Below are positions 21,664 to 46,302 of a stretch of 64,000 bases of DNA, piece by piece (position 1 is the stretch's first letter; every line of letters begins with the position of its first letter). The translations under genes were made by a program, and so were the position numbers. A model generated the notes under the pieces. The model saw only the letters and a program-made list of their open reading frames with translations, was not told the DNA's origin and did not search any database. The DNA lies in the NCBI GenBank assembly GCA_963723985.1, contig CAVRTC010000003.1, forward strand, positions 55,914 through 119,913, read 5' to 3'. Source of the DNA: an uncultured Actinomycetes bacterium. GTDB lineage: Bacteria; Actinomycetota; Acidimicrobiia; IMCC26256; BP-133.

Positions 21664-21670
21664 AACCGAT

Positions 21671-22254: not shown

Positions 22255-22258
<4 letters not shown>
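21671..22258 (+). CDS. TetR-family regulator (liu/atu-type context), 2-3 frameshifts
   Basis: [15 protein letters not shown] (frame a), [33 protein letters not shown] (frame b) and [21 protein letters not shown] (frame c) together rebuild a normal TetR. The 3' end is uncertain. Confidence 0.7.
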
Positions 22259-23859
<1,601 letters not shown>

Positions 23860-27673: not shown

Positions 27674-27686
27674 GGGCGGTCGGCCG

Positions 27687-29921: not shown

Positions 29922-29942
29922 TTTCGCGGAGGTTCCCTCGCC

Positions 29943-30452: not shown

Positions 30453-33088
30453 CCCGGCTGCGGCAGAGGGCCGAGGGCGGCGGCCAGTTCCGTCCGGCTG
30501 GAGATGCCGAGCTTGTGGTAGACGCGCTGCAGGCGGTTCTCCACCGACCGCACGGTGACGAACAACTCGTCGGCGATGTCCTTGTTGGAATGCCCGGCGG
30601 CGGCCAACACCGCCGTCTCGTGCTCGGCCGGCGTGAGGCGAGCGCGGGACTCCACCGCGTGGAGGGCGGGGGTGACCGCCCCCTGGCACCGCTCGGCCAG
30701 GACGCCCGCCCGGACGCCGGCGTTGGCGGCCCGCTTGGGATTGCCGTCCCGCCGCCAGCACACCGCCGCTTCGGCGGCCGCTTCGGCGGCCAGCAGGGTG
30801 GCGCCCATCGTCTCGAAACTCGACGCCACTTCTTCGAGACCGGCGGGGTCGCGCCGGGCGGCGGCGGCGGCGAAGGCGGCCCGGGCGGGCACGAGGTCAC
30901 CTTCGATCTCGCCGGCCAGTTCGGTCAGGCGCCCGACCACTGACTTGGCCTCGCCCAGTCGGGCTACGCCGTGCAGAGCGGCCGCCTCACCGACCCGGTC
31001 GCCGATCCGCCGGCCGAGCGCCGCCGCCTCCCCGAGGCTACGGCGCGCCGCCCGGAGGTCGCCGGCGGCGGCTGTCGTCCACGCCCGAGCCTGCTGGAGG
31101 TCGACGGCCGAGTACATGGTGGCCGACAGCCCGAGGTCATCGACCGCCCGCAACGCCTCGTTCGCTTCCCGGGCCCGCCCCGCCAACGCCAGCGCCATGG
31201 CCACGTAGCCGAGCACCTCGTTGATGAACAGGGGCCGGCCGATCTTGCGGAACAGCGCCAAGGCTTCGCGACCGTGATGGAGCGCGACCTGGACGTGCCC
31301 CCGATCCGCCACCGTCCTCGCCAACCACCACGCCCCCCAGGCCTGCGCTTCGTCCGACCGGTCGGCAAGCGCCTGATGGTATTGGGCCAGGACCAGTGCC
31401 TCGGCCTCTTCGAACCGACCGGCGTGGGCCAGGGCCTCGCAACGGAAGAAGAGATGGACCCACGGATACCAGTCGAGCGGCTGGGTCAGCGCCTGATGGG
31501 CGGCGAAGCCGCGGCTGGTCGCCTCGTGAGCCTCGGCGAAACGACCCAGGCGGCCCAGGCTGTAGCCCGCGACCAGACAGCCCCAGGCCAGCGCCGGGCC
31601 CTCGGCCCGCTTGATGAGCGGGGCCGCCGCTTCGGCCCCGGCCCGGAAACCCTCGGCCGCCAGCAGCAGCGCCGAAGCCCGGGCCGTGACGGAATCGCGG
31701 AGCGCCGGATCCCGAATGGCCGCCTCGGCCTCCTCCGCCACCCGGCGCCCTTCGTCGAGGCGAACGAGGTACACGCCGAGGAGCTCGACACGCGCCACCG
31801 CCACGAGACTGCGCTGGAGGTCGTCGATGGCCTGCTCGGCCAGGCGGGCCAGATCCGCTTCGGCCTGCTCGTGGCGGCCCTGGAGGCTGGCCAGCTGGGC
31901 GATAAGGAGCGCTGCGTCGAACCCGGCCCCGGCGTCGATGGCCGCCCGCGCCAGCCGCTCGGCCAACGGGAAGTCGTACCGCCACCGCGCCATCGTGGCG
32001 CCGGCCAGCATAAGGTCGGGGCGGGCGCCGCCGCCATCCAGGCGCCAGGTGGCGAGCCGGAGGATGTCCTCGCGGCGGCGGGCCCCGGTGGCCTCGACCA
32101 CCCCCGCCAGCGAACCGGCCATGACCCGGCCCGTGATCGTCGGGATCCGGGCCCGGAGCACGTCCCCGTAGATCGGATGCGCCAGACGCACCTCCAGGCG
32201 CCGTCCCTGGCTGGCGCTGCGGATCAGACCTTTCCGTTCGAGGCCTTCGGCCACGGCGGCGTCGGCCAGCGCGTCGAGCTCGGCGGTCCCCAGCGGCTCG
32301 GCGAAGGACAAGAGCTCGAGCAGCCCCCGCTCTTCGGAGGTCAGGCTGCCGAGCCGGGCCTCGACGAGTTCGACGAGACGCTCGGAGGGGGCAAGGGGGC
32401 CGACGAGCCGCCAGATCCCGTCCTCGTCGCGCAGCACGCCGGTATGGACGGCACCCAGCACCAGTTCCCGAAGGAACAGGACGTTGCCCTGGCAGCGGTC
32501 GGCGAGCCGGGCGGCGGTGGCCGGATCCACCGGGCCGCCCAGCGCCGAAGTGAGGAGCTCTTCGATGGCCGGCGATTCGAGCCCCTCCAGTTCCACCCGC
32601 TCGGCCGGACCGTCCTTCCACAAGGCGACGATGGCGTCGGGAGCGGTCTCGCCGGAGCGCAGCGTGGCCACGACCGTGCAGGCGCCAGTGGCCACCAGCT
32701 GATGCACAAGCGTGGCCGACGCATCGTCGAGGAGATGGGCGTCGTCCACGAAGAGGACCAGCCGGCGACCCGAGGCCCGCTCGACGAGCGACGCCGCCGA
32801 ACGGCGGAGCAGGTCGGCCTTGTCGTCGACCGCTCCCGCCTCGCTCTGCACCGCGGGCAGGAGCGGCGCCAGCGCCCCAAAGGGAAGCCGCGAGGCGGAG
32901 CGGGTCGCGGTCACGCGAGCCGTGGACACCCCCGCCGCTTCGGCGAGTTTCAGGCATTCGAGCGCCAGGCGGGTCTTCCCTACCCCGAGCGGCCCAGCCA
33001 GCACCAGCCCGCCCTTCCCCAACGAGAGGAATCGGCGCATCTGGCGAACCTCACCGGCCCGGCCGACCAGCGGCCATTCCGTCTCCAT
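30428..33088 (-). CDS. LAL-type LuxR-family transcriptional regulator (AAA ATPase + TPR-like + HTH)
   Basis: Walker A LAGPLGVGKTRLA, Walker B LVLFVDDAH, and a C-terminal LuxR HTH LTPAEHETAVLAAAGHSNKDIADELFVTVRSVENRLQRVYHKLGI. Confidence 0.9.
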   Translation of the reverse strand: METEWPLVGRAGEVRQMRRFLSLGKGGLVLAGPLGVGKTRLALECLKLAEAAGVSTARVTATRSASRLPFGALAPLLPAVQSEAGAVDDKADLLRRSAASLVERASGRRLVLFVDDAHLLDDASATLVHQLVATGACTVVATLRSGETAPDAIVALWKDGPAERVELEGLESPAIEELLTSALGGPVDPATAARLADRCQGNVLFLRELVLGAVHTGVLRDEDGIWRLVGPLAPSERLVELVEARLGSLTSEERGLLELLSFAEPLGTAELDALADAAVAEGLERKGLIRSASQGRRLEVRLAHPIYGDVLRARIPTITGRVMAGSLAGVVEATGARRREDILRLATWRLDGGGARPDLMLAGATMARWRYDFPLAERLARAAIDAGAGFDAALLIAQLASLQGRHEQAEADLARLAEQAIDDLQRSLVAVARVELLGVYLVRLDEGRRVAEEAEAAIRDPALRDSVTARASALLLAAEGFRAGAEAAAPLIKRAEGPALAWGCLVAGYSLGRLGRFAEAHEATSRGFAAHQALTQPLDWYPWVHLFFRCEALAHAGRFEEAEALVLAQYHQALADRSDEAQAWGAWWLARTVADRGHVQVALHHGREALALFRKIGRPLFINEVLGYVAMALALAGRAREANEALRAVDDLGLSATMYSAVDLQQARAWTTAAAGDLRAARRSLGEAAALGRRIGDRVGEAAALHGVARLGEAKSVVGRLTELAGEIEGDLVPARAAFAAAAARRDPAGLEEVASSFETMGATLLAAEAAAEAAVCWRRDGNPKRAANAGVRAGVLAERCQGAVTPALHAVESRARLTPAEHETAVLAAAGHSNKDIADELFVTVRSVENRLQRVYHKLGISSRTELAAALGPLPQPGQSPLGDE

Positions 33089-33114
33089 CGGCCCATTCTG
33101 CAGCCGGTCGTTGT

Positions 33115-33158
33115 CGAGTGGTAGCCCTCGTCGGAGTTTGGTAGCCGCTACTCCTGAC
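33115..33158 (+). promoter_or_regulatory. Second copy of the bipartite element CGAGTGG-N11-GGAGTTTGGTAGCCGCTACTCCTGAC
   Basis: Lies in the 92-bp divergent region between the LuxR gene (33088) and the ABC/catabolic operon (33181). Confidence 0.55.
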
Positions 33159-33180
33159 CGAATGCGCTTCAGCGGGTTGA

Positions 33181-33941
33181 GTGGTCATGGTGGACGGTCT
33201 CGAGGTCAGCGGCGTGGTGGTCAGATTCGGAGATTCGGGCGCGCTCGACGGCGTATCCTTCGCCGTGCCACGGGGCGGATCACCGGACTGGTCGGGCCTG
33301 TGGGGGCCGGGAAGACAACGGCGTTCAACGTCGCCTGTGGCCTTCAGCTGGCCGACGCAGGCAGCGTCAGGCTGCGGGGAGCCGACATCAGCCACGAGAC
33401 CCCCGCCCGTCGCAGCCAGCTGGGGCTGGGCTGGCTCCATCACCGGACGGAGATCTTTCCGTCGGTCTCCGTCCGGGACAACGTCGCCCTGGCCGTCGAG
33501 TCGGCCTCCGCCGGCGCAGACGGCGCCCCCGCCGAGTGCGACTCGTTCACCGACGAGCTGCTCGAGGCGGTCGGGCTGGCCGCGACGGCCACTCGCCTGG
33601 CCGCCCAACTTCCGCTCCACCTCCGCCGCCGGCTGGAACTCGCCCGCGTGCTGGCCCGGCGCCCGAAGGTCCTCCTGCTCGACGACGCCACGGCCGGCCT
33701 CGACGGCCGGCAACGGGCGGCCTTCGGGCAGATCCTCGCCGACCTGAGGGCCGAACGCGGCACTGGCATTCTCCTGTTCGAACGGGATCCGGGCCTCACG
33801 TTCGAGCTGTGCGACTGGATCCACGCCATCGTCGCCGGCCGGCCGCTGCTCGACGGGCCCGCCGCCCAGGTCCGGTATTCCGATGCTCTGCATCGTGCCT
33901 ACCTGTCCGAGATCCCGACCGCCATTGGGAAAGGACCGTGA
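33181..33941 (+). CDS. ABC-type ATPase homolog with degenerate catalytic motifs (LivG/LivF-like); frameshift in G-run 33272-33275
   Basis: Walker A is intact (GPVGAGKTT). The signature is LPLHLRRRLELARVLA (not LSGGQ), Walker B is LLLDDATAG (no catalytic Glu) and the H-loop position reads ERD. The N-terminal 30 aa are in the adjacent frame. Confidence 0.75.
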
Positions 33942-35149
33942 TGCGTGAAGAGACCAACTGGCTGATCTCGGTCGACGACCACGTGATCGAGCCGCCCGGC
34001 GTCTGGCAGGACCGCGTCCCCCAGCGGTACCGGGACGCCGCGCCCCGCATCGTCCGGGACACCGCCGGAGAGGCCTGGCTGTACGAGGGGAAGCGGTTCC
34101 CCACCCTGGGGCTGGCGGCGGCAGCCGGGAAGAACAAGGAGGACTTCAGCCCGGCTCCGATGACGTACGAGGAGATGCGGCCGGGGTGCTACGACGCCAA
34201 GGCGCGCCTCGACGACATGGACCGCGACGGCGTGCTGGCCTCGTTGTGCTTCCCGTCGTTCCCGCGGTTCTGCGGGCAGACGTTCTACGAAGCCTCGGAC
34301 CGGGACCTCGGGCTGCTCTGCGTCCGGGCCTACAACGACTGGATGATCGACGAGTGGTCGGCCACGGTGCCGGGCCGGTTCATCCCCGCCATCATCCTGC
34401 CGCTGTGGGACCCGGTCGAGGGAGCCCGCGAGATCGAGCGGTGCGCCGCCAATGGCGCCAAGGCCGTGGTCTTCAGCGAGAACCCCGCTCCCCTCGGCCT
34501 GCCGTCGATCCACGACCCCAACCGGTTCTGGGATCCCGTCTTCGGCGCGGCGTCCGACACCGGGCTGCCGCTGTGCACCCACATCGGGTCGTCGTCGAAG
34601 CTGCCGGCCACTTCCGACGACAACCCGCTCATCATCACCTTGGCGCTCACTCCGATGAATGCCATCACCACCTGTGTCGACTGGCTCTTCAGCGGGAACT
34701 TCCTCCGCTTCCCGAATCTGAAGCTCTGCCTCTCCGAGGGCGGCATCGGCTGGATCCCATACGCGCTGGAGCGCTGCGACTACACCCTCGACCGGCAGGG
34801 TGCCTGGGCGGCCAAGGGCGACTTCTCCCTCGATCTCGCCGCCGGGACGATCGACGTCCGATCGGTGGAACGGCTGGAACTCGCAACCCCGAGCCAGCTG
34901 TTCCGCGATCACGTCTTCGGCTGCTTCATCGACGACATCACCGGCGTCGACAACCTGGACCGGATCGGGATCGACAACGTCATGATCGAGACCGACTACC
35001 CGCACACCGACTCCAGCTGGCCGAACTCGATTGCCACCGCCCGCAAGCGACTGGCGTCGCGCACCGAAGACGAGATCTACAAGATCTTCCAGGGCAACGC
35101 CAAGCGGGTCTTCTCCTTCGAGCCCGCACCGATCCCCGAACTCCGCTGA
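33941..35149 (+). CDS. Amidohydrolase-2 family protein (ACMSD-like metal-dependent hydrolase/decarboxylase)
   Basis: ISVDDHVIEPP..LCFPSFPRF..CTHIGSS..IETDYPHTDSSWP. The ATG overlaps the upstream TGA by 1 nt. Confidence 0.8.
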   Translation: MREETNWLISVDDHVIEPPGVWQDRVPQRYRDAAPRIVRDTAGEAWLYEGKRFPTLGLAAAAGKNKEDFSPAPMTYEEMRPGCYDAKARLDDMDRDGVLASLCFPSFPRFCGQTFYEASDRDLGLLCVRAYNDWMIDEWSATVPGRFIPAIILPLWDPVEGAREIERCAANGAKAVVFSENPAPLGLPSIHDPNRFWDPVFGAASDTGLPLCTHIGSSSKLPATSDDNPLIITLALTPMNAITTCVDWLFSGNFLRFPNLKLCLSEGGIGWIPYALERCDYTLDRQGAWAAKGDFSLDLAAGTIDVRSVERLELATPSQLFRDHVFGCFIDDITGVDNLDRIGIDNVMIETDYPHTDSSWPNSIATARKRLASRTEDEIYKIFQGNAKRVFSFEPAPIPELR

Positions 35150-36306
35150 TGGGCGAGAGCACCGACCTCGGCGACTTCACCGAAACCCTATCCCGATGGC
35201 TGGAGAAGGACGTCCGGCCCCAGGTCATCGAATTCGAACAGGCCGATCGGTATCCGACGGAGATGGTCGAACAGATGCGGACGTTCGGGCTCTTCGGCGC
35301 CACGATCCCCAGTGGCTACGGAGGTCTCGGGCTCGGTGCCGGACCCTACGCCGAGATCGTCTCGATGATCTCCGAGGTGTGGATGTCGCTGACCGGCGTC
35401 CTCAACTCCCACTTGATGATGGCGCACCTCGTCCACAAGTTCGGAACCGACGAGCAGCGCGACGAGTTCCTGCCGGCCATGGCTGCCGGCGACCTCCGGG
35501 GCGGGCTGGCGCTCACCGAACCGGACTGCGGGTCGGATCTCCAGGCCATCCGGACGTCGGCCCTCCGACAGGACGACAGCGGCTACGCCATCACGGGCGC
35601 GAAGACGTGGATCACCAATGCCGGTAATGGGAACTGCCTGGCGGTGTTGCTGAAGACCGATTCGGCGGCGGAACCCCGCCACCGCGGCATGTCGGTTTTT
35701 CTCGTCAAGAAGCAGACCGACGGCTATCAGGTGGGCCGCAAGCTCGGGAAGCTCGGGTACCGCGGCGTCGACACGGTCGAGGTCTTCTTCGACGGGATCG
35801 TGGTCCCCGCCGGCCGGCTCCTCGGCGCTGTCGAGGGGCAGGGCTTCGCCCAGGTGCAGGGGGGCCTCGAGCTGGGACGAATCAACGTCGCCGCCAGGGG
35901 GGTGGGCGTGGCCGACGCCGCCCTCCAGGCCGCCTTGCGCTACAGCGTCACCCGCCACACCATGGGCAAGCCGATCGGGCAGCACCAGGCGATCCAGCTG
36001 AAACTGGCCGACATGGCGTGCCGCGTGACGTCGGCCCGCCTGCTGGTGCGGGAAGCGGCGGCCGCTTTCGACGCGGGCCAACGCTGCGATCTGGAAGCGG
36101 GCATGGCCAAGCTCGTGGCGACAGAGGCGGCGCTGGAGAACGCCACCGAAGCGCTGAGGATCCACGGGGCGTACGGCTACTCGACCGAGGAGCACATCGA
36201 GCGGTACTACCGGGATGCGCCCCTGCTCTGCATCGGCGAGGGAACGAACGAGATCCAGCGCCTGGTCATCGCCCGCCAGCTGCTGGCCCGGACGGAACCG
36301 TCGTGA
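35149..36306 (+). CDS. Acyl-CoA dehydrogenase
   Basis: GLALTEPDCGSDL..TGAKTWITNAG..IHGAYGYSTEEHIERYYRDAPLLCIGEGTNEIQ. TGATG junction. Confidence 0.92.
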   Translation: MGESTDLGDFTETLSRWLEKDVRPQVIEFEQADRYPTEMVEQMRTFGLFGATIPSGYGGLGLGAGPYAEIVSMISEVWMSLTGVLNSHLMMAHLVHKFGTDEQRDEFLPAMAAGDLRGGLALTEPDCGSDLQAIRTSALRQDDSGYAITGAKTWITNAGNGNCLAVLLKTDSAAEPRHRGMSVFLVKKQTDGYQVGRKLGKLGYRGVDTVEVFFDGIVVPAGRLLGAVEGQGFAQVQGGLELGRINVAARGVGVADAALQAALRYSVTRHTMGKPIGQHQAIQLKLADMACRVTSARLLVREAAAAFDAGQRCDLEAGMAKLVATEAALENATEALRIHGAYGYSTEEHIERYYRDAPLLCIGEGTNEIQRLVIARQLLARTEPS

Positions 36307-37454
36307 GCCGGCAGATCCCGCGACCCGGGCCGCTCCACGGCATTCGCGTCGTCGACTTCACCACCAACATGGCGGGGCCGCTGGCCACCATGGTCCTCGG
36401 CGACCAGGGTGCCGACGTCGTCAAGGTCGAACCGCCCGCCGGTGACGTCGTCCGGGGCATCGGCACGATGTCGGCCGGCATGTCGGCCTACTTCGCCAAC
36501 CTGAACCGCTCGAAGCGGTCGATCGCGCTGGACCTGACCGATGCGGGCTCCCGGCCGGTCGTCGACGCGCTGCTCGATACGGCCGACATCATGGTGCACA
36601 GCTACCGGCCGGATGTGGCGCGGGCACTCGGCCTCGACGAGCGGCGGGTCCGCGACGGCCGGCCCCGGCTCGTCTACGGCGAGGTGGCCGGCTACGGCTC
36701 GGAGGGCCCCTCTGCCGGACGGCCCGCCTACGACCACGTCATCCAGGCGATGTCGGGCTTCGCCGCCCTGCAGACTCCACCAGGCAGCGGGGAGCCGACC
36801 CTCGTCCGACAGGGCGTCGTCGACAAGCTGACAGCCTACGCCACGGCCCAGGCGCTGGCCGCCGCCCTCGTCGAACGAACCCGGACGGGAGAGGGGCGGG
36901 CCGTCACGATCCGGATGCTCGACGTCGCCATCGCCGTGCTGTGGCCGGACGGGATGATGGACAAGACGATCCTCGCTCCGGAGCAGCCGCGACCGGCCAT
37001 CGACGGCAGCTTCCGGGCTACGCCGACCAAGGACGGGCACATCGTGCTGACCGTGGTCACCGGGCGGCAGCTCCAGCAGCTCCTCGTGGCCACCGGCGTC
37101 GAGGAGACCGGCGCCGGGCCGGAGACCGGGCCCCGAGGCCCGGGCGGGGAGAAGCTCCGGGAGGCGGTGGCCCGGCTGGCGACGATGACGACGGACGAAG
37201 CCGTGGACCGGCTGGCGGCCCACGAGGTTCCCGTCTCGGCCGTGGTGCGCCTGGAGGACCTCCATCGGCACCCCCAGGTCGTGGCCAATCGGAGCATCGA
37301 CGAATTTCCGCATCCGGTGCTAGGCCTGGTCCGCCAGGCGAATCCGGCCGTGCGGTTCGACGGCGAGCACGCCGGCGGTCTCCGGCCGGCGCCTCGCCTG
37401 GGAGAACACGACGAGGAGATCCGGCGCGAACTTCTTCGGGGGGTACGGCAATGA
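36303..37454 (+). CDS. CoA-transferase family III (CaiB/BaiF-like)
   Basis: LHGIRVVDFTTNMAGPLATMVLGDQGADVVKVEPP..YFANLNRSKRSIALDL. GTGA junction. Confidence 0.9.
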   Translation: MSRQIPRPGPLHGIRVVDFTTNMAGPLATMVLGDQGADVVKVEPPAGDVVRGIGTMSAGMSAYFANLNRSKRSIALDLTDAGSRPVVDALLDTADIMVHSYRPDVARALGLDERRVRDGRPRLVYGEVAGYGSEGPSAGRPAYDHVIQAMSGFAALQTPPGSGEPTLVRQGVVDKLTAYATAQALAAALVERTRTGEGRAVTIRMLDVAIAVLWPDGMMDKTILAPEQPRPAIDGSFRATPTKDGHIVLTVVTGRQLQQLLVATGVEETGAGPETGPRGPGGEKLREAVARLATMTTDEAVDRLAAHEVPVSAVVRLEDLHRHPQVVANRSIDEFPHPVLGLVRQANPAVRFDGEHAGGLRPAPRLGEHDEEIRRELLRGVRQ

Positions 37455-39001
37455 GGAAACACGGACCCGTGACGTCAGCCCTGCTGATCCCGCTGGGTGC
37501 CACCCTGCTGGCGACCGCCAGCTGCGGTCTGCGGGTCGACCAGCTTCCGGCGGCTGAGGGTTCCGAGGCGGTCACCACCGAAGTGGCGGCGGCCGGCGAC
37601 ACCTCCGCGTCCGCCGCGGAAACCACGGCCCTGGTGCCCGAGTCGGGGATCCCGGACGCGGCCAGCAGCGCCACCGCCGCACAGGGCCCGAGTCGCGCCG
37701 GTGGATCGGCCCCGACCCCGGCCGGTCAGCCGGCGCCGACCGGCGGCGCGGGAAGCAGGGCCAGCGAAGTCGGTCAACGTCGGGGCGACCCTCGAAGCCA
37801 ACCCGTCCCCGGGCAGGCGGCGGCGCCCCGCGCCCAGAAGGCGTCGACCCAAGGTTCCGGTACGCCCGCCGCCCCCGCGCCCGGCGCGGCGGCCGTGAAG
37901 GCCGAGATCCGCCTGGGTTCCATCGGGATCGGCAGCGGCCCCCTGGGGTTTGTGACCCAACCGATCCGTGACGCCTCGAAGGCCTGGGTGGCGTCGGTGA
38001 ACGGTCGGGGCGGGGTGAACGGCCATCCGGTCCGGCTGCTCTTCGGCGACGACGGGGCCGATCCGGCCCGGGCACTGGCCTTGGCCAAGCGGTTCGTCGA
38101 AGCCGACAAGGTGCAGGCCATGTTCGGGCTGCACATGCCGACCACTGAGCAGGCGATCGTCCCCTACCTGATCGAGAAGAGGATTCCCACGGTCGGTACG
38201 TGCAACTGCAACCCGGCCAGCGACGAGAACCCGCTGGCGTTCAACGTCGGTCCCGGGCCGACGGCGGGCTTCGCCTGGGAGCACCTTCTCTCGGTGCTGG
38301 GACAGACGGGCGCCAAGAAGATCGCCGTCCTGTACTGCCGGGAGGCCACGACCTGCGACGTCGTATTCAAGAACATGCGGCAGTTCACGGACAAGCTCGG
38401 GGTGGAGATTGTGCAGGGCTCCCAGGTGTCGCTGGCCCAACCGGACTACACCGCCGAGGTGCTCGCCGCCCGCAATGCCGGCGCCGAGGGGATCATCGGC
38501 GTCGTCGAGAACCAGTCGGCCGTCCGGATCCTCCGGGCGGCCCGGCGCCAAGGATGGGGCGTCCCGGTCGGCTCCCAGCACTCGGTCATGGACGATCGCA
38601 TGCTGGCGCTCCCCGACGCCAAGGGCCTGCTGGGCGCCGTGATCACCGCCGACTACCAGACCCATCCCGGCTTCGAGGAATACCGCCAGGCGATGGCCCG
38701 CCTGCCGGGCTCCATCAAGGGCAACACCGGGTCGATCCAGTGGGCCGCCGGCCTGATGCTCGAAAAGGCCAGCACCCAGTTCGGCGACACGGTGACGCCG
38801 GACGACATCATCGAAGGCCTCTACGGTCTGCGGGGCGAGACGCTCGGCGGCCTCGTCCCCCCGACGACGTACAAGCGGGGCGTCCCCCACAAGGACGCCA
38901 ACCACTGCGCCATCCCGATCGTGATCGGCGACGGGAAATTCGACTTCCCGAAGGGTCCCGACTTCCAGTGTGCGCCGGGGTGGCAGCCGGCGCAGCCGTA
39001 G
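37451..39001 (+). CDS. LIV-type ABC transporter substrate-binding lipoprotein with a long disordered N-terminal linker
   Basis: Lipobox LLATASCG, a ~120-aa Ala/Pro/Gly/Ser linker, then a periplasmic-binding fold (IRLGSIGIGSGPLG..VNGHPVRLLFGDDGADP..). ATGA junction. Confidence 0.85.
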   Translation: MRKHGPVTSALLIPLGATLLATASCGLRVDQLPAAEGSEAVTTEVAAAGDTSASAAETTALVPESGIPDAASSATAAQGPSRAGGSAPTPAGQPAPTGGAGSRASEVGQRRGDPRSQPVPGQAAAPRAQKASTQGSGTPAAPAPGAAAVKAEIRLGSIGIGSGPLGFVTQPIRDASKAWVASVNGRGGVNGHPVRLLFGDDGADPARALALAKRFVEADKVQAMFGLHMPTTEQAIVPYLIEKRIPTVGTCNCNPASDENPLAFNVGPGPTAGFAWEHLLSVLGQTGAKKIAVLYCREATTCDVVFKNMRQFTDKLGVEIVQGSQVSLAQPDYTAEVLAARNAGAEGIIGVVENQSAVRILRAARRQGWGVPVGSQHSVMDDRMLALPDAKGLLGAVITADYQTHPGFEEYRQAMARLPGSIKGNTGSIQWAAGLMLEKASTQFGDTVTPDDIIEGLYGLRGETLGGLVPPTTYKRGVPHKDANHCAIPIVIGDGKFDFPKGPDFQCAPGWQPAQP

Positions 39002-39010
39002 GCGGCGGCC

Positions 39011-39757
39011 GTGCACCGTCGAGCGGTCCTCGGGTTGCTGCGGGCGCAGGGCGACCGGGTCCTGGCGTTCGGCTGCCTCGGCGGCGGCGGCCTCCTGGTC
39101 TTCCTCGCCTACTGGAGGCTCAGCGCCAAGGCCGACCCGGCGCAAGGCATGGCTTACCTGGCGTCCGGCGGCATCGGCGGCCTGTTCCTCATCGGGCTCG
39201 GTGCCACGCTCGTCGTCTCCGCCGACCTCCGGGACAGCTGGCGGAAGCTGCGCCTCCTCGAACACAGCGCGACCGGCGACACGGGCGCACCGTTGGCTCG
39301 CTCAGCCGGCCATCTCGGAGGGCGAGAGTTCCCGGCCAGCGGGTTCACCCGGGGAGCCGCCGGGTTCGGCCTGGGGGCCGGCCTGGCGATCCTGGTGTTC
39401 GGCTGGAACCACATCGCCACCGACGGGACGGCCGGCGAAGCCTACGAAGGCCTGGCGGTGGCCGCCGCCGGGGTGCTGGTTGCCGGCCTCGTGGCCGGAT
39501 GCTTCATCGTCGTCATGCGGAAGGCCGTCGAGGACCGGGCGGCAGCGCTGCTGGCTCCCTGGCTCCCCTCTACCGCCGTACCGGTCGCGGACCATCGCCT
39601 CGCCCCCGGGGGCCGCGTGCTCGTCGCCGAAGGCCTCCGCCGCTACCACTCCGAAGGGTGCCTGGCCGTCGCCGGCGTCGCCACCGAATCCGTCGAGGTC
39701 ACGGCGGTCCCGGCCGGTCTGGTGCCCTGCCTCCTCTGCCAGGAGGTTTCGGTGTGA
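39011..39757 (+). CDS. P1: 4-TM membrane protein with the YLASGGIGGL..SADLRDSW motif and a C-terminal H-x3-C-x22-C-x2-C cluster
   Basis: TM segments VLAFGCLGGGGLLVFLAYW, YLASGGIGGLFLIGLGATLVV, FGLGAGLAILVFGW and LAVAAAGVLVAGLVAGCFIVV. Tail RRYHSEGC..PCLLCQ. Its stop overlaps the permease ATG. Confidence 0.7.
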   Translation: MHRRAVLGLLRAQGDRVLAFGCLGGGGLLVFLAYWRLSAKADPAQGMAYLASGGIGGLFLIGLGATLVVSADLRDSWRKLRLLEHSATGDTGAPLARSAGHLGGREFPASGFTRGAAGFGLGAGLAILVFGWNHIATDGTAGEAYEGLAVAAAGVLVAGLVAGCFIVVMRKAVEDRAAALLAPWLPSTAVPVADHRLAPGGRVLVAEGLRRYHSEGCLAVAGVATESVEVTAVPAGLVPCLLCQEVSV

Positions 39758-41676
39758 TGGACGACTATTTCCCGTTCATCGTGGTAGGGCTCACGACCGG
39801 ATCGGTCTTCGCCGTCGCCGCCATGGGTCTCACCGTCACCTACACCACCTCCGGCGTGTTCAACTTCGCCCATGGCGCGGTGGCCATGGTCGCCACCTAC
39901 GTGTACTACTCGCTGCACGTCGACCTCGGGCTCCCGACCGCGGCGGCGATGGCGGTGGCCGTGCTCGGCGTGGGTCCGGTGGTGGGTCTCTGTGTCGACC
40001 GGCTGCTGTTCCGCCGTCTGCACGGCGCACCGGCGGCCACGTACGTGGTGGTGTCGCTCGGACTGCTGATCGCCTTACAGGGCTTGATCATCATCATTTA
40101 CGGAGCCGACCTCCGGCCGCTCGAACCGATCTTCCCCCGCGAAACTTTCGGGCTGGCCGGCGTGCGGGTGGGCTACGACCAGGCGATCGTCGTCGCCATC
40201 TCCGTGGTCGTCGCCCTGGCCCTGGCGGTCTTCTTCAAACGGAGTTCGCTCGGGGTCAAGACGAGAGCGGTGGTCGACGACCCGAATCTCACCGAGCTGG
40301 TCGGGGTCAACTCGTCGCTGGTCACCACGTTCAGCTGGATGCTCGGCTGCTCGTTCGCCGCCCTGTCCGGGCTCCTCCTCGCCCCGCTGGTCGGCTCGCT
40401 CGACGCCGTGTTCCTCACGCTCCTCGTGATCCAGTCGTTCGGCGCAGCCGTGGTCGGCCGGCTCGTCGACCTTCGCTGGACGTACCTCGGCGGCCTCGGC
40501 ATCGGTGTCGCCGCCGAGGTGTCGAAGAAGATCTTCGCCGGCGAGCCGTCGCTGTCGGGGTTGCCGACCAGCCTGCCGTTCATCGTCCTGTTGGCGGTGC
40601 TCGTCCTCAGCCGCCGGGGCCGGTTCACGGAGGTGGTGAAGATCTCCCAACGGGTGACCGCCCGCCAGAGCCTCGGGACCCGGCCGTTTCCCTGGGCGAC
40701 CATCGGTCTCGGAACCGTGATCGCCGTCGGCCTGGGGTTTACCCTCGACGGCGCGCCGTTGCTCACGGCGGCGGCGACCGTGATCTTCGTCCTGCTCTTC
40801 TCCAGCCTCAGCCTGTTGGTGGGGTTGTCACGGCAGGTGTCGCTGAGCCACGCCGTCTTCTTCGTGATCGGCGCCACCACGCTGTCGGGACTGCAGGATG
40901 CCGGGGTTCCCTACCTGCTGGCGCTGCTGCTGTCGGGAGCCGTTCTGGTTCCGATCGGCGCCTGCGTGGCCATCCCCGCCCTCCGGCTCTCGGGGCTGTT
41001 CCTGGCCCTCGGCACCTTCGCCTTCGGGATCCTCGGCCAGCAGCTCCTATACACGACCGTGCTGGCCGGCGCCAAGGCGACACGCGTGATCACCCGACCC
41101 GAGTTCCTGGGCGTCAGCCTGAAGGGCGACCGGGCCTTCTACCTCTTCGTCGTGGCCGTCGTCCTGACCGGGGTGGTCGCCGTCGAGATCGTCCGGGTGA
41201 CGCGTCTCGGGCGGATGCTGCGCGCCCTGGCCGACTCGCCCGCCGCGGTTCAGATCCTGGGCGTCAATCCGATGGCGTCGCAGGTCCTCGTGTTCTGCCT
41301 GAGCGCCTTCCTGGCCGGGATCGCCGGTGCGCTGATCGGCACGCTCACCGCCGCCATCAACGCCGAAGCCTACGGCTTCCTGGAATCGCTGATCTGGGTG
41401 ACGGTGCTGATCGCCGCCGGGCGAGAGACGCTCCTCGGGACGATCGTCGCCGCGGTGCTGCTCTTCGCGCTCCCCAGCGTCTTCACTTCGCCGACGGTGC
41501 GGGAATGGCAGCCGGTGGCCTTCGGGCTGGGGGCGATCGTGCTGGCTCAGGCCCCGAACGGGCTCGTCGGGCTGCTGCGGCCCCGGTGGCCGCAGTTCGC
41601 CCGGCTGGCCGCCGCCAGCCGCTGGCGACTGGAGGACGGACCGCTGCGCCACCGGCTGGCCGAGGGGGCACGGTGA
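39757..41676 (+). CDS. Fused LivH-LivM-type branched-chain amino acid ABC permease (639 aa)
   Basis: The N-terminal half is LivH-like (GLTVTYTTSGVFNFAHGAVAMV) and the C-terminal half LivM-like (LLVGLSRQVSLSHAVFFVIGA..MLRALADSPAAVQILGVN). Confidence 0.9.
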   Translation: MDDYFPFIVVGLTTGSVFAVAAMGLTVTYTTSGVFNFAHGAVAMVATYVYYSLHVDLGLPTAAAMAVAVLGVGPVVGLCVDRLLFRRLHGAPAATYVVVSLGLLIALQGLIIIIYGADLRPLEPIFPRETFGLAGVRVGYDQAIVVAISVVVALALAVFFKRSSLGVKTRAVVDDPNLTELVGVNSSLVTTFSWMLGCSFAALSGLLLAPLVGSLDAVFLTLLVIQSFGAAVVGRLVDLRWTYLGGLGIGVAAEVSKKIFAGEPSLSGLPTSLPFIVLLAVLVLSRRGRFTEVVKISQRVTARQSLGTRPFPWATIGLGTVIAVGLGFTLDGAPLLTAAATVIFVLLFSSLSLLVGLSRQVSLSHAVFFVIGATTLSGLQDAGVPYLLALLLSGAVLVPIGACVAIPALRLSGLFLALGTFAFGILGQQLLYTTVLAGAKATRVITRPEFLGVSLKGDRAFYLFVVAVVLTGVVAVEIVRVTRLGRMLRALADSPAAVQILGVNPMASQVLVFCLSAFLAGIAGALIGTLTAAINAEAYGFLESLIWVTVLIAAGRETLLGTIVAAVLLFALPSVFTSPTVREWQPVAFGLGAIVLAQAPNGLVGLLRPRWPQFARLAAASRWRLEDGPLRHRLAEGAR

Positions 41677-42377
41677 GCCTGCTCCTCGACGTGCGGGGCC
41701 TCCGAGCCGGTTACGGACGGACCGAGGTGCTGCACGGTGCCGAGCTCCGGGTCCCGACCGGCGCGGCCGTCGCCGTCCTCGGCGCCAACGGCGCGGGAAA
41801 GACGACTTTGCTCAACACCATCGCCGGCGTGCTCCGGGCCTGGGACGGCCGGATCACCTTCCGGGGCCAACCGATCCAGAACTGGGCGGCGCACGCCCGC
41901 ACCCGGGCCGGTGTCTGCCTCGTGCCGGAGGGCCGGGGCATCTTCCGGGGTCTCACGGTCCGGGAGAACCTGAGGCTCCAGGCCGGGGAGGGTGCGTTCG
42001 CCGAAGCACTCGAGGCGGCGGTCGTGGCGTTCCCGATGCTGAAGGAGCGGCTCGACCAGCCGGCGGGCACCCTGTCGGGCGGTCAGCAGCAGATGCTGTC
42101 GGTGGCGAGGGCCTTGATCACCGACGCGCCGCTGGTGCTGGCCGACGAGTTGTCGGTGGGTCTGGCCCCGGTGGTCGTCGACGAGATCTTCGCCGCCGTC
42201 GAGCTCCTGAAGCGGCAGGGTCGATCGCTGGTCCTCGTGGAGCAGTACGTCGAACGGGCGGTGGCCGTGGCCGACTACGTCTACATCCTCCACAAGGGGG
42301 TCACGGTCTTCGCCGGTGAACCGGCGCAGTGCCGGTCGGGCGATGTCTTCGAGCGTTACCTCGGCGGAGCGGCCTGA
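41673..42377 (+). CDS. ABC transporter ATP-binding protein, LivF-like (canonical motifs)
   Basis: GANGAGKTT, LSGGQQQMLSVARAL, LVLADELSVGLAP, LVEQY. GTGA junction. Confidence 0.92.
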   Translation: MSLLLDVRGLRAGYGRTEVLHGAELRVPTGAAVAVLGANGAGKTTLLNTIAGVLRAWDGRITFRGQPIQNWAAHARTRAGVCLVPEGRGIFRGLTVRENLRLQAGEGAFAEALEAAVVAFPMLKERLDQPAGTLSGGQQQMLSVARALITDAPLVLADELSVGLAPVVVDEIFAAVELLKRQGRSLVLVEQYVERAVAVADYVYILHKGVTVFAGEPAQCRSGDVFERYLGGAA

Positions 42378-42691
42378 TGCCGCGAAACAAAGGGGGTGCC
42401 ATCGTGCGGTGGCCAAGGCTTCGGGCGGCGTGGGACCGGGCGCTGGGCGTCGGCCTGATCGCCGGCGGAGGAGTGTGCGTGATGGGCGGCTACCTCGGGG
42501 TGAGCGGGACCCGCCGCCTCTCCGAACAGGCCGCCTATCTCGCCTCCGGGGGCCTGGGAGGGCTGTTCCTCCTGGGGTGTGGAGCGACGTTGCTGGTGTC
42601 GGCCGACCTGTCGGACCTGTGGCGGCAACTCGAGATAACGGAGGAAGCGGTCGACCGGCGTGAGATCGAGCTGGTTCGAGGGGGGCGATAG
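42377..42691 (+). CDS. P2: small 2-TM membrane protein, paralog of the P1 N-terminus
   Basis: ALGVGLIAGGGVCVMGGYLGV then AAYLASGGLGGLFLLGCGATLLVSADLSDLWRQLEITEE. TGATG junction with the ATPase gene. Confidence 0.7.
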   Translation: MPRNKGGAIVRWPRLRAAWDRALGVGLIAGGGVCVMGGYLGVSGTRRLSEQAAYLASGGLGGLFLLGCGATLLVSADLSDLWRQLEITEEAVDRREIELVRGGR

Positions 42692-42693
42692 GG

Positions 42694-44106
42694 ATGGGCA
42701 GACAGACGCGGAGCCGGCTGGGCAGCCTCGTGGCCGGGGCGGCGGTGATGATCCTCGGCCTGACCGTGCTGCCCGACTCCGGGGCGGCGGACACCCGACC
42801 GGGTCAGGGCCCGACGACGGCTCTTCTGGGGACGGCGACCGCGCAGGGAATGCGGATCACCTACACGGTGCCCGACTTCCTCGTTGTCACCGAGGTCATG
42901 GACGGGGGTGGGCCGGTTGCCCAGGCGGTGCTCGAAACGGGCGGCCAGTCCACGGCGTTCGCCGCCCTGCCCTATCCCGGGGAGAACGGAGTCGGTGGGC
43001 CGGCTCTCGTGCTCGGGCTCCTCGGCCAGTCGCCGCCGGCGAGCTACCCGTTCTACGTCCGGGCCGACTCTACGGTGAATCCCAGCACCGAACTGAAGGA
43101 TCCGAGCGGCTCGTACACCTTGCGGGCCGCGGCCGAAGTCCGGAAATCCGTCGGGACTGCCGACGTGGCCTTCGGGCCGCCCGACCACCCGGCGTCGTCG
43201 GCCACGGCGCACACCGAGGTACTCAGCGCCGCCGACGGCACGATGACCGTGACGGCGGAATCGCGGTTCTCGGGCCTGGCGCTGGGGGAGGGGCTGTTAC
43301 GGATCGCCTCCGTCGAAAGCCGCTCCGTCTCGGTCTACGGGCCGGCCGACGCCGAACCCCGGACCACAACCGCGCTGCTCATCGACGGTGCCCGGATCGG
43401 CGATCAAGCCGTCACGATCGGCCCGGACGGCGTCCACGCCGCGGGAGTGCCCTCACCGGTGCCCACCGGTGGCCCCGGTCCGCTCAACCAGGCGCTGGCC
43501 CAGGCCGGTTTGACCGTGCGGACCGTGTCCGCCGGTCCCGTCGAGGGTGGTGCGACGGCCGATGCCCTCGAGATCAGCCGCGATCAGGGACCCCCCGTTC
43601 CCGGGATGCCCCGGAGCACGCTGAGCCTGCGCATCGGCGGGGCCACCACGGCGGTGAGCGCCGGCAGCACGTCGGCCCTCGTGGGTACCCCTGAGCTTGC
43701 GGCGGACACGCCGGAAGCTCAGGGGAACGCCGACCGTTCCCCGGCCCCGTCCGGCGCCGACCCCGTCGTGGCGGCCCCGCCCCCCAACACCGCCAAGGAC
43801 AACGAGCCCGCAACGACCGGAGCCCGGCCCGCTGCCCCGTCGCCGCGGTCGGCGGCTGGTCCGACCAACGACTTCGGAACCGAGTTCTCCGACAGCTCGA
43901 CGGGGCTCGGTCTGACACCTCCCCCAACGGCCCAGGTCTCCGCATCGCCATCCCCGGCACCATCCCTGCCGCGACCATCGCGCCCGGCGAGTTCCTCGCG
44001 AGCCCTCGCACCGGAGGCCAGGGCCCTGTACGTCCTGCTCGGCCTGGCGGCGGTGGGGACGATCGGGCTCTCGCTCGTCTCCCGCACCCGGACGGCCCCG
44101 TCGTGA
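42694..44106 (+). CDS. Secreted protein with a signal peptide, ~330-aa domain, Pro/Ala-rich stalk and C-terminal TM anchor
   Basis: Signal LVAGAAVMILGLTVLPDSGAA, stalk PAPSGADPVVAAPPPNTAKDNEP.., and tail APEARALYVLLGLAAVGTIGLSLVSRTRTAPS. A paralog fragment lies at 9475..10181. Confidence 0.75.
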   Translation: MGRQTRSRLGSLVAGAAVMILGLTVLPDSGAADTRPGQGPTTALLGTATAQGMRITYTVPDFLVVTEVMDGGGPVAQAVLETGGQSTAFAALPYPGENGVGGPALVLGLLGQSPPASYPFYVRADSTVNPSTELKDPSGSYTLRAAAEVRKSVGTADVAFGPPDHPASSATAHTEVLSAADGTMTVTAESRFSGLALGEGLLRIASVESRSVSVYGPADAEPRTTTALLIDGARIGDQAVTIGPDGVHAAGVPSPVPTGGPGPLNQALAQAGLTVRTVSAGPVEGGATADALEISRDQGPPVPGMPRSTLSLRIGGATTAVSAGSTSALVGTPELAADTPEAQGNADRSPAPSGADPVVAAPPPNTAKDNEPATTGARPAAPSPRSAAGPTNDFGTEFSDSSTGLGLTPPPTAQVSASPSPAPSLPRPSRPASSSRALAPEARALYVLLGLAAVGTIGLSLVSRTRTAPS

Positions 44107-44462
44107 TGGACGACCACTCCCCGTCGGGGGCGGAACGGTGCCGCACCGCCGCCGTGGTCCTGATCGTCACCGGGGCGTTGTTCATCGTCGTCGGCTTCGT
44201 GCGCGTCACCGGCTCGCTCACGTTGGCCGAGATGATCGCCTACATCGTGTCCGGCGGCATCGGCGGGCTCGCCCTGGTCGGGTCCGGTGTCGTGCTCCGG
44301 TCCTCGGCCCAGTTCCGTGACCAGTGGGACGCGATCGATCGGGCCCGCGCCGACCTCCGGACCCGCCACCAAGGAAAGGAAACCGGCGACGCCTCATGGA
44401 CAATCCCTTCTTCCCGCACCTGCTCGTCGAAGACCGTGATGGCGTCAAGGTCGTCGTCCTGA
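44103..44462 (+). CDS. P3: small 2-TM membrane protein, third paralog
   Basis: AAVVLIVTGALFIVVGFVRV then IAYIVSGGIGGLALVGSGVVLRSSAQFRDQWDAIDRARADL. GTGA junction. The 3' end overlaps the next gene by 67 nt, so the true stop is uncertain. Confidence 0.6.
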   Translation: MMDDHSPSGAERCRTAAVVLIVTGALFIVVGFVRVTGSLTLAEMIAYIVSGGIGGLALVGSGVVLRSSAQFRDQWDAIDRARADLRTRHQGKETGDASWTIPSSRTCSSKTVMASRSSS

Positions 44463-45169
44463 ACCGACCCGAGAACTTCAACGCCGTCGACACGGAGCTG
44501 CACGGTGCCCTCGCCGGCATCTGGCGTCACCTGGCCGGTGACCAGACCGCTCGGGCCGTGGTACTGACGGGGGCCGGATCGGCATTCTCCGCCGGGGGCG
44601 ACATGCCCATGCTGCAGCGGCTGCGGGAAGACGTCGCCCAACGGCGCATCATGATCGAAGAGGCGCGCCAGATCATCCGGGAGATGCTCGAATTCCCACT
44701 CCCGGTGGTGGCGGCGGTCAACGGCCCCGCCGTCGGCCTCGGCTGCAGCCTGGCGCTGCTCTGCGACATCGTGTACATCTCCCACACGGCCTACCTGGCC
44801 GATCCGCACGTCGCCGTCGGGCTCACGGCCGGGGACGGCGGCGCGGCGACCTGGCCGCTCCTCACCAGCATCCTGCGGGCCAAGGAGTACCTCTTCACCG
44901 GCGAGCGGATCCCGGCCGCGACGGCCGTCACCCTCGGCCTGGCCAACCGGTGCATCGACGCCGACCAGCTGATGCCCGAGGCCCTGGCGCTCGGTGAGCG
45001 ACTGGCCGCCCTCCCGCCGCAGGCCGTCCGGACCACCAAGCGGGCGCTGAACATCCACCTCCTGCGAGCGGCGGAGGGTGTGCTGGAGTACGCCCTGGCG
45101 GCCGAGCACGACTCCTTCAGCACTCCCGAGCACCGGGCCATCGTCGACGGTTTCCTAACCCGCCGCTGA
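44396..45169 (+). CDS. Enoyl-CoA hydratase/isomerase (crotonase family)
   Basis: VVVLNRPENFNAVD..VLTGAGSAFSAGGDM..VAAVNGPAVGLGCSLALLCD. AAGGAAAGGAAA lies upstream of the ATG. Confidence 0.9.
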   Translation: MDNPFFPHLLVEDRDGVKVVVLNRPENFNAVDTELHGALAGIWRHLAGDQTARAVVLTGAGSAFSAGGDMPMLQRLREDVAQRRIMIEEARQIIREMLEFPLPVVAAVNGPAVGLGCSLALLCDIVYISHTAYLADPHVAVGLTAGDGGAATWPLLTSILRAKEYLFTGERIPAATAVTLGLANRCIDADQLMPEALALGERLAALPPQAVRTTKRALNIHLLRAAEGVLEYALAAEHDSFSTPEHRAIVDGFLTRR

Positions 45170-45273: not shown

Positions 45274-46302
45274 GTGAGGCAGGCTGAGTCGGTGACTCTA
45301 GTACCTGATCCAGACGACGTGCTCGAACTCTTCCTGGGATTCTGGATTTCCCGGACGGTGATGGCCGCGGTGCAGCTCGGAGTGTTCGAGGCGCTGGGGT
45401 CGCCGCCCGCTCTGGAGGGGCTCACGCTGGAGCAGGCCCAGGCGGCGCTCAGCCTGCCGGCCCGTCCCGCCCGGGCCCTGCTCGACACCTGCGTGGCCAC
45501 CGGGTTGCTCGAGAAGGAGGCCGGTCGATACCGCAACTCCCCGCTGGGCGCCCGTTACCTCGCCGCCGGTTCCGAGTACTCACTCCGGAACTACGTCCTC
45601 GACGAGCGGTGGTGCTGGTCCGACTGGGGGAAGCTGGAGGACGCGCTGCGGGCTGACCACCAGCTGCTGCCCGAGGACGCCGAGGGGTATCACGCCTTCC
45701 CCGAGGATTTCTTCCTCGACTTCCTCCACGGCCACTCCCTGGCCATGGGTGAGCGGCTGGCCGCGGCCGTGGACTTCGGCGCCGCCCGGCGGATCATGGA
45801 CGTCGGCGGCGGCTCCGGCGCCGTCTCCATCGCCCTGTGCCGGCGCTTTCCCCACCTCGAGGCCATCCTGGTCGACCAGCCGCCGGTGGCGGCCCGGGCG
45901 GCCGTCCACATCGACGACGCCGGGCTCGGCGGCCGCATCACCACCTGCCCGGCCAATATCTTCGAAAGCGTCCTGCCCGGCGGCTGCGACACGGCCGTCC
46001 TGGCCAATGTCCTCCACGACTTCTCGCCGAGCCGGGCCCAGGAGATCCTCGGCCGGGTGGTGGCCGCCCTGCCGCCGGGCGGCCGCGTCGTCATCCTGGA
46101 GATCGTCCCCGACGAGGATCGGCGGTCCCCGCCCCTGGCTGTGGCGTTCTCGGTGGCCATGATCGTCAACACCGCCGGAGGCGACGCCCACACCGCCTCG
46201 CAGTACCGGGCCTGGCTGGAGGCCGCCGGCCTCACAGGGGTGGTCGTGACCCCGATTCCAGGCCGGATGGTCACGACAGTCCTGGAGGCAATCAAGCCGT
46301 AA
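45274..46302 (+). CDS. Class I SAM-dependent O-methyltransferase (dimerisation domain + MTase)
   Basis: N-terminal winged-helix-like VLELFLGFWISRTVMAAVQLGVFEAL, SAM motif I RIMDVGGGSGAVSIAL, and later LANVLHDF. Confidence 0.85.
   Translation: MRQAESVTLVPDPDDVLELFLGFWISRTVMAAVQLGVFEALGSPPALEGLTLEQAQAALSLPARPARALLDTCVATGLLEKEAGRYRNSPLGARYLAAGSEYSLRNYVLDERWCWSDWGKLEDALRADHQLLPEDAEGYHAFPEDFFLDFLHGHSLAMGERLAAAVDFGAARRIMDVGGGSGAVSIALCRRFPHLEAILVDQPPVAARAAVHIDDAGLGGRITTCPANIFESVLPGGCDTAVLANVLHDFSPSRAQEILGRVVAALPPGGRVVILEIVPDEDRRSPPLAVAFSVAMIVNTAGGDAHTASQYRAWLEAAGLTGVVVTPIPGRMVTTVLEAIKP

Follow-up and report, generated by a model that had tools for sequence, protein, structure and literature searches.

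Why does a Liv-type ATP-binding cassette (ABC) transporter share an operon with enzymes of β-oxidation type, and what would it import? We addressed this question for a run of twelve genes in a 64,000-nucleotide stretch (hereafter the window) of contig CAVRTC010000003.1, from an uncultured bacterium of the Acidimicrobiia (assembly GCA_963723985.1, positions 55,914 to 119,913). The genes encode a degenerate LivG-type ATPase (LivG*), a predicted amidohydrolase-related dinuclear oxygenase (ARO), an acyl-CoA dehydrogenase (ACAD), a CoA-transferase, a substrate-binding lipoprotein (SBP), three related membrane proteins (P1, P2 and P3; the P family), a fused LivH-LivM permease (LivHM), a LivF-type ATPase, a secreted protein (sec) and a crotonase. 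We consider it somewhat probable that they form one operon, controlled by a LAL-type regulator, for the import and first CoA-dependent oxidation of a hydrophobic carboxylic acid, most likely a terpenoid or methyl-branched one. An original prediction, made from the DNA letters, had read the locus as serving uptake and degradation of a hydrophobic or branched acyl substrate, and synteny, module linkage and neighbouring genes support it. Gene context also argues that the transporter is not an amino-acid importer.

Operon anatomy and linkage of transporter and acyl-CoA genes

Raw open reading frames (ORFs) over-extend in the window, which is ~70% G+C, and genes were called from a third-position GC frame plot together with the start codons at each frame switch. 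This placed twelve consecutive genes on the + strand (33190–45169; g1–g12 in Table 1), all with high third-position GC. The result bears out the twelve-gene run of the original prediction, and the eight start/stop overlaps that it listed were all recovered where it had placed them: GTGATG between g1 and g2 (33938–33943, with the g1 stop and the g2 ATG both at 33941), TGATG at 35147–35151, 39755–39759 and 42375–42379, GTGA at 36303–36306, 41673–41676 and 44103–44106, and ATGA at 37451–37454. The P3/crotonase junction is a 67-nt overlap (P3 stop 44462, crotonase ATG 44396) rather than a coupling overlap; SBP/P1 and P2/sec are separated by gaps of 9 nt (39001/39011) and 2 nt (42691/42694). The P3 stop codon is present in an orthologous contig (L011) but lost in the window, so that P3 reads 67 nt into the crotonase gene. 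GTG 44324 was ruled out as crotonase start because ATG 44396 is the start conserved in L011. Pfam and NCBIfam matches agreed with the predicted gene content, except that "amidohydrolase" was the wrong functional label for g2.

Four-base overlaps are frequent elsewhere in the window, and the motif by itself is therefore weak evidence for an operon. The coding frame, however, switches at every operon junction, and the same tight packing occurs in the orthologous contigs L011 and L017, where junctions are short overlaps or gaps of ≤14 nt; together, these features are more than chance. Same-strand orientation, overlaps or gaps of ≤10 nt and packing shared with orthologues are all present, and as judged from this arrangement the twelve genes are confirmed as a real, tightly packed operon, for which a single transcript and translational coupling are predicted. 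A consensus promoter and terminator scan gave nothing above chance level, and a distant tRNA was the sole match in an Rfam scan.

Two metagenomic contigs from one sample (L016 and L011) together carry the same block, P450 through crotonase. L016 has the order ACAD-ferredoxin-P450-SDR-LAL (- strand)-LivG*-ARO, and L011 the order ACAD-CoA-transferase-SBP-P1-LivHM-LivF-P2-sec-P3-crotonase, with the gene called next lying on the opposite strand; L017 carries LivG*-ARO-ACAD. Core genes were 78–91% identical to the window copies (ARO and ACAD compared with L017; CoA-transferase, SBP, permease, LivF and crotonase with L011), while the accessory genes shared 64% (P1, P3 and sec) or 77% (P2) identity with L011. 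dN/dS was well below 1 for all genes, LivG* included, and the range of 0.23–0.38 for accessory genes (0.23 for P2) indicates purifying selection.

Scans of genomes and metagenomes recovered 88 distinct loci, and counts were made over loci with enough flanking sequence. The usual order was [SBP]-sec-long P-[short P]-LivHM-LivF-SBP-[LivG]. A P gene followed sec within 2 kb in 24 of 29 loci, LivHM lay within 4 kb in 15 of 17 and LivF within 6 kb in 13 of 15, and SBP was present in 18 of 21. These results show that sec, P-family proteins, fused LivHM, LivF and SBP constitute a conserved transporter module of Actinomycetota. A crotonase or acyl-CoA synthetase gene occurred within 10 kb in 7 of the 11 loci with long flanks, and Pfam-annotated neighbourhoods of the module contained crotonase, synthetase, ACAD, RPE65-type oxygenase, P450 and TetR genes. 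The transporter thus recurs beside genes for acyl-CoA enzymes, although which enzymes these are differs among loci. Relatives in which the two are never linked had been named beforehand as the case that would speak against the predicted locus; the opposite was seen in L011, L016 and L017 and in the 7 of 11 long loci. Canonical LivG adjoined the module in 5 of the 11 long loci. The first loci had suggested that the module never has LivG and that LivF would act as a homodimer, an idea that was dropped when 80 more loci gave this count.

An RPE65 carotenoid-oxygenase-type gene, ACAD, synthetase and crotonase adjoin the module in loci L014 and L018, and the RPE65-type neighbours in L014/L015 and L018 hint at apocarotenoid-like substrates. 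L014/L015 and L018 represent two lineages of metagenome-assembled genomes (MAGs), and a luciferase-like monooxygenase gene also lies beside the module in L014/L015. An Acidimicrobiia MAG (L001/L005) has sec, long P and SBP with no permease or LivF within 10 kb, and its flanks encode DUF7064 and PEP-utilizer/Rph_4th proteins and a synthetase.

Proteins of the transporter module

The SBP belongs to the LivJ/Peripla_BP_6 type (PF13458, E 5e-43, residues 152–467), and its lipobox Cys is followed by a low-complexity tether of ~125 aa; its nearest solved relatives are generic receptors of the HAAT family, with weak E-values. The permease combines LivH/UrtB (residues 8–263) and LivM/UrtC (residues 407–610) regions, and thereby two BPD_transp_2 domains, in one 639-aa protein, with 91% identity to that of L011 and 59–62% to those of distant module loci. 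LivF, whose best matches are UrtE/LivF, retains canonical motifs (GANGAGKTT, LSGGQQQ and LADE).

P1, P2 and P3 are paralogues that share two transmembrane helices and the motif Y..SGG.GG...G.G....SADL.D.W..L. P1 is extended by a further two helices and, at its C-terminus, by a small His/Cys domain (pattern YH..GC...PC..C); its AlphaFold model (pLDDT 82) comprises four long helices and a small beta unit, for which a Foldseek search of the PDB returned generic helical bundles only and no real match. None of P1, P2, P3 and sec matched a Pfam family even at E ≤ 10. At E ≤ 1e-3 a P-family profile retrieved 2,773 cluster representatives, of which 232 reached E ≤ 1e-30. Among the members looked up, only one names an organism, an Actinomycetota MAG, the others being labelled "hypothetical protein", and one closer P1 homologue is labelled as an Opitutaceae MAG on a partial contig. 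Source-named relatives of the P family and sec are all from uncultured Actinomycetota, except for the partial contig binned to Opitutaceae. In one 613-aa member (P0350), a P-domain (residues 3–212) is fused to a Liv-type BPD_transp_2 permease domain (residues 244–504), which is direct evidence, by domain fusion, that P proteins are likely to work with the permease. Three further proteins of 487–899 aa (P0279, P0288 and P0291) carry 7–10 tandem copies of the terminal His/Cys module of P1; such multi-repeat proteins, which match the C-terminal part of P1 only, have Pfam matches to DUF6233 and Ada_Zn_binding.

In sec, a signal peptide precedes an all-beta ectodomain of ~290 aa (residues ~40–330, modelled with pLDDT mostly >90), which a Pro-rich stretch of ~100 aa tethers to a membrane anchor at the C-terminus. 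We found ~93 relatives. A sec profile searched against PDB sequences gave nothing credible, and Foldseek against the PDB returned only long beta-sheet outer-membrane barrels, with a query-normalised TM-score of at most 0.17.

LivG* keeps an intact Walker A motif and has lost the Q-loop Gln, the STGQ signature, the Walker B Glu and the H-loop His: the signature position reads LPLHL, LSLPL or LPPDL, Walker B has D-D instead of D-E, and R or E replaces the H-loop His. The same four losses occur in orthologues P0119–P0122 (68–72% identity) and in L016 and L017, whereas LivG proteins at 41–50% identity are canonical, including those that adjoin the same module in other lineages. The operon thus departs from HAAT systems, which have a LivG-type ATPase with canonical catalytic motifs. 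Because the losses are conserved in orthologues and dN/dS is low (0.26–0.39, and 0.27 between two intact orthologues), LivG* is best regarded as a maintained, predicted non-catalytic paralogue and not as a private pseudogene. The window copy is frameshifted. Its N-terminus (VDGLEVSGVVVRFG...), starting at GTG 33190 or ATG 33187, lies in a different frame from the body of g1, and DNA alignment with two orthologues located a 1-nt deletion near 33267 in the window copy only. ATG 33162 was ruled out as the start, since the true N-terminus is in the other frame. This frameshift may be an assembly error; a TetR gene and a DUF512 radical-SAM gene elsewhere in the window are likewise split.

It is possible, though we hold the idea only tentatively, that P proteins and sec are obligatory subunits of an undescribed sub-type of binding-protein-dependent ABC importer in monoderm Actinomycetota, specialised to draw hydrophobic acids across the cell wall, with LivG*, bereft of catalytic residues and signature, as a conserved pseudo-ATPase in the clade of the window.

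Oxidative enzymes, regulation and the probable substrate

The g2 protein matched PF04909 (E 2.6e-29), with its TIM-barrel fold, and aligned over its full length with RrDitZ (PDB 8UYR; E 5e-71, ~36% identity), its best solved relative, as well as with PtmU3 (E 3e-31). Named members of the ARO family are DitZ, PtmU3, SfbO and AibH2, and the family signature is an N-terminal D-x-H and a C-terminal D-x-P-H-x-D/E metal-binding motif, the latter being absent from characterised PF04909 hydrolases and decarboxylases (PMC13154177). Both are found in g2, as DDH (around residue 12) and DYPHTD (around residue 350), and align with the same motifs of RrDitZ. DitZ is a diiron-dependent diterpenoid hydroxylase used with dehydroabietic acid (PMC13154177). 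On these motifs we assign g2 as a predicted DitZ-like ARO, for which O2-dependent C–H hydroxylation at a dinuclear Fe/Mn cofactor would be expected; it is called DitZ-like, and not DitZ itself, because identity is ~36%. Its substrate may be a CoA thioester, given that the gene is set in a CoA-transferase/ACAD/crotonase operon. PtmU3 reportedly acts on CoA esters.

Family searches also recovered the upstream operon of the original prediction (26039–30452, + strand; synthetase-ferredoxin-P450-SDR-MaoC) and the LAL regulator between the two operons (Table 1). The nearest solved relatives of the P450 are CYP143, P450cin, CYP101D and P450cam, and its relatives are terpene hydroxylases, in support of a terpenoid-like substrate. 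The regulator has the AAA_16 (residues 6–134) and GerE (residues 818–869) domains of LAL proteins and the same position and orientation in L016. The intergenic region 33089–33189 is 87% identical to that of L016, compared with ~55% identity at flanking synonymous sites (pS ~0.43–0.45), and contains two TGGTAGCC copies 20 bp apart and a GTAGC-C-GCTAC inverted repeat, which makes it a candidate LAL operator.

Table 1 Genes and other features of the window, with the basis of each assignment.
Feature	Position	Strand	Basis
g1 LivG* (LivG-type ABC ATPase paralogue)	33190–33941	+	Pfam ABC_tran, NCBIfam
g2 predicted ARO, DitZ/PtmU3-like, PF04909	33941–35149	+	Pfam Amidohydro_2, DDH + DYPHTD motifs
g3 ACAD, FadE3-like	35149–36306	+	Pfam, NCBIfam; PDB 4iv6 E 7e-120
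g4 family III CoA-transferase	36303–37454	+	Pfam CoA_transf_3, NCBIfam
g5 SBP	37451–39001	+	Pfam Peripla_BP_6
g6 P1, long P-family protein	39011–39757	+	P-family motif, model
g7 fused LivH-LivM permease	39757–41676	+	Pfam, NCBIfam
g8 LivF-type ATPase	41673–42377	+	Pfam, NCBIfam, canonical motifs
g9 P2, short P-family protein, two transmembrane helices	42377–42691	+	P-family motif
g10 sec, secreted protein	42694–44106	+	signal peptide, model
g11 P3, short P-family protein	44103–44462	+	P-family motif
g12 crotonase-family enoyl-CoA hydratase/isomerase, last operon gene	44396–45169	+	Pfam ECH_1, NCBIfam
Acyl-CoA synthetase	26039–27673	+	Pfam, NCBIfam
4Fe-4S ferredoxin	27696–27929	+	Pfam, NCBIfam
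P450	27910–29163	+	Pfam, NCBIfam
SDR	29163–29921	+	Pfam, NCBIfam
MaoC/RipB-Ich-like hydratase	29949–30452	+	Pfam, NCBIfam
LAL-type regulator, 886 aa, divergent from operon	30428–33088	-	Pfam
Divergent intergenic region, candidate control region	33089–33189	.	two TGGTAGCC copies, conservation
Carboxyl_trans subunit	22105–23859		Pfam
Biotin carboxylase with biotinyl domain	23867–25930		Pfam
AtuA-phosphotransacetylase fusion, 931 aa	52895–55690		PF07287 E 3e-148, PTA_PTB
TetR regulator after AtuA fusion	55756–56343
O-methyltransferase downstream of operon	45319–46302

Acyl-CoA carboxylase alpha and beta subunits and HMG-CoA lyase, the combination of the Atu/Liu pathways, are all present in the window by family match only; the lyase, which lies upstream together with a TetR gene, scored above its NCBIfam cut-off. 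A gene of the AtuA family lies 7.7 kb downstream of the operon and outside it. A hydrophobic or branched acyl substrate is favoured because of the DitZ-like oxygenase and the CYP143/P450cin/P450cam-like P450, and because acyl-CoA carboxylase, HMG-CoA lyase and AtuA occur in the same window; a terpenoid or methyl-branched acid is our best guess.

These parts can be arranged into a putative pathway. The LAL regulator would control the divergent promoters in 33089–33189. A hydrophobic acid would be captured outside the membrane by the tethered SBP, possibly aided by the tethered, beta-rich sec, and handed to LivHM, with P1–P3 as extra membrane subunits of the permease, LivF hydrolysing ATP and LivG* acting either as its structural partner without catalysis or in regulation. 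Once imported, the acid would be converted to its CoA thioester by the CoA-transferase or by the synthetase encoded upstream, the DitZ-like diiron oxygenase and the P450/ferredoxin pair would hydroxylate unactivated carbons, and ACAD, crotonase, MaoC hydratase and SDR would carry out steps of β-oxidation type. For any beta-methyl branches, the neighbouring carboxylase and HMG-CoA lyase could act as their counterparts do in Atu/Liu pathways.

Several observations weigh against such a pathway. Loci L012 and L019 have no acyl-CoA enzymes near the module. The g2 protein is only ~36% identical to DitZ, and the window lacks the remainder of a dit-type pathway: among the ~58 window gene calls scanned, we found no Rieske protein, and neither a Rieske nor an extradiol dioxygenase stands beside the DitZ-like gene as in a dit cluster. 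The best matches of the CoA-transferase and MaoC are dicarboxylate enzymes of succinate-glutarate, mesaconate and itaconate types, so that the substrate could also be a C5 dicarboxylate or some other acid. The window copy of LivG* is frameshifted, and without catalytic residues and signature in this subunit a LivG*-LivF dimer would have no fully canonical ATP site.

The dicarboxylate matches are also the starting point for a reading in which the same architecture serves another substrate. This could be an aromatic or alicyclic acid that derives from lignin, or else a short branched dicarboxylate (mesaconate, itaconate or glutarate type). Such a reading would account for a CoA-transferase closest to succinate-glutarate and succinyl-CoA:mesaconate transferases (with SUGCT among the solved structures), a MaoC that resembles RipB/Ich itaconyl-CoA hydratase, ACAD matches that include glutaryl-CoA and cyclohexanecarboxyl-CoA dehydrogenases, and one related locus near protocatechuate dioxygenase genes. 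These enzyme matches, however, all fall far below family cut-offs; a small polar dicarboxylate needs no two C–H hydroxylases, such as the DitZ-like oxygenase and the P450cam/cin-like P450, and AtuA, carboxylase and HMG-CoA lyase indicate methyl-branched isoprenoid chains. We consider this alternative unlikely, although worth keeping in mind. That the operon is decaying in this genome, with LivG* a frameshifted pseudogene, the P3 stop lost and the transporter no longer functional, appears improbable. The 1-nt deletion in g1, the lost P3 stop codon and the two other split genes in the window would be expected under decay, but third-position GC is high in every gene, dN/dS is well below 1 even for LivG*, the degenerate LivG* motifs are conserved in intact orthologues, and three or more indel-broken genes in 64 kb fit assembly indel errors at least equally well.

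Gene clusters of actinomycetes typically encode such proteins as LAL regulators, P450s, an O-methyltransferase and a PtmU3-like oxygenase, and IspH lies 5 kb downstream, as could be expected if the locus were a biosynthetic tailoring cassette like that of the platensimycin pathway with its PtmU3, in which case the ABC system would export or recycle a product. Yet no PKS (polyketide synthase), NRPS (non-ribosomal peptide synthetase), terpene synthase or prenyltransferase was found among the ~58 window gene calls, the O-methyltransferase gene is not retained downstream of the L011 crotonase, and a binding-protein-dependent LivHM is of importer type. After the O-methyltransferase come housekeeping genes, and the flanks hold Der, Cmk, AroA, TyrA, chorismate mutase and ScpB. 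A natural-product gene cluster was rejected because the scanned gene calls include no scaffold synthase and because of these housekeeping flanks, and the biosynthetic reading as a whole is highly improbable. Import and oxidation of a hydrophobic acid remains our preferred reading.

Other features of the window were noted in passing. The upstream TetR gene (21669–22300) is split between two frames near 22090–22110, and its C-terminal part runs on into the carboxyltransferase ORF with no intervening stop, which points to at least one indel (assembly error or pseudogene). The radical-SAM/PDZ/DUF512 gene (49007–50406, - strand) is broken into two ORFs near 49432–49471, with DUF512 model positions 1–91 and 97–189 on separate ORFs in different frames. 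An SDR ORF at 4164–4736 matches only the C-terminal half of adh_short (positions 77–190) and may be truncated or frameshifted. At 46460–47659, flanked by the genes for the O-methyltransferase and the Der GTPase, a 399-aa ORF has coding-type composition and no Pfam match at E ≤ 10. An RHH/PIN toxin-antitoxin pair occupies 15538–16135, and similar RHH-PIN pairs occur near the module in L014 and L018.

Relation to known systems

Catabolic operons that pair a Liv-type importer with CoA enzymes are already known, and the logic of this operon is not new. HAAT importers (LivJ/K-LivHMGF, TC 3.A.1.4) stand beside CoA ligase and β-oxidation genes that serve aromatic or aliphatic acids, Rhodopseudomonas palustris being one example. 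The window shares with them a Peripla_BP_6 SBP, LivH- and LivM-type BPD_transp_2 domains, a LivF ATPase and genes tied to acyl-CoA rather than amino-acid metabolism. It differs in having fused permease halves, a LivG predicted to be catalytically dead in its clade, and a module that incorporates three P-family membrane proteins as well as an all-beta surface protein on a tether; both this protein and the SBP have low-complexity tethers of ~100 aa or more. The module brings two protein families that lack both a Pfam entry and any relative of solved structure, and one natural fusion joins the P-domain physically to the permease, which makes this a concrete case of putative accessory subunits in a Gram-positive type I ABC importer.

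Mce lipid and steroid importers of Actinobacteria have Mam/Mas/LucA accessory proteins. The parallel is one of analogy only, in that both are ABC importers for (here, predicted) hydrophobic substrates in organisms with a thick envelope, with small accessory membrane and extracytoplasmic proteins and genes of β-oxidation type; there is no sequence or fold relationship, the permease being LivHM and not YrbE, and the binding protein having a class I periplasmic binding fold and not that of MlaD/Mce.

Asymmetric ABC ATPase dimers with one degenerate nucleotide site include TM287/288, CFTR and TAP. As in these, one ATPase subunit (LivG*) lacks the catalytic Glu and the H-loop His and keeps Walker A. 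The classical degenerate subunit, however, retains a canonical signature, which leaves one complete site, whereas the signature is kept in LivF and lost in LivG*, such that neither composite site would be fully canonical. Current asymmetric-dimer models do not predict the loss of every catalytic motif, signature included, in a conserved subunit.

Compared with the Atu/Liu clusters of Pseudomonas (acyclic terpene and leucine degradation), the window likewise contains carboxylase subunits, HMG-CoA lyase, TetR and AtuA, together with ACAD, crotonase, SDR and acyl-CoA synthetase. Its genes are, however, spread over three or more units instead of one atu operon, its AtuA is fused to a phosphotransacetylase domain, and atu/liu clusters include no P450, ARO or ABC importer genes. 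Like DitZ and PtmU3, g2 has the PF04909 fold with the D-x-H and D-x-P-H-x-D motifs, and it aligns with RrDitZ over its full length, but the window has no Rieske dioxygenase or dit-type ring-cleavage genes, and g2 stands in a CoA-transferase/ACAD/crotonase operon. A DitZ/PtmU3-like diiron C–H hydroxylase in such a CoA-pathway setting, as predicted here, could help to define the role of this family in the turnover of terpenoid-like carbon in soils.

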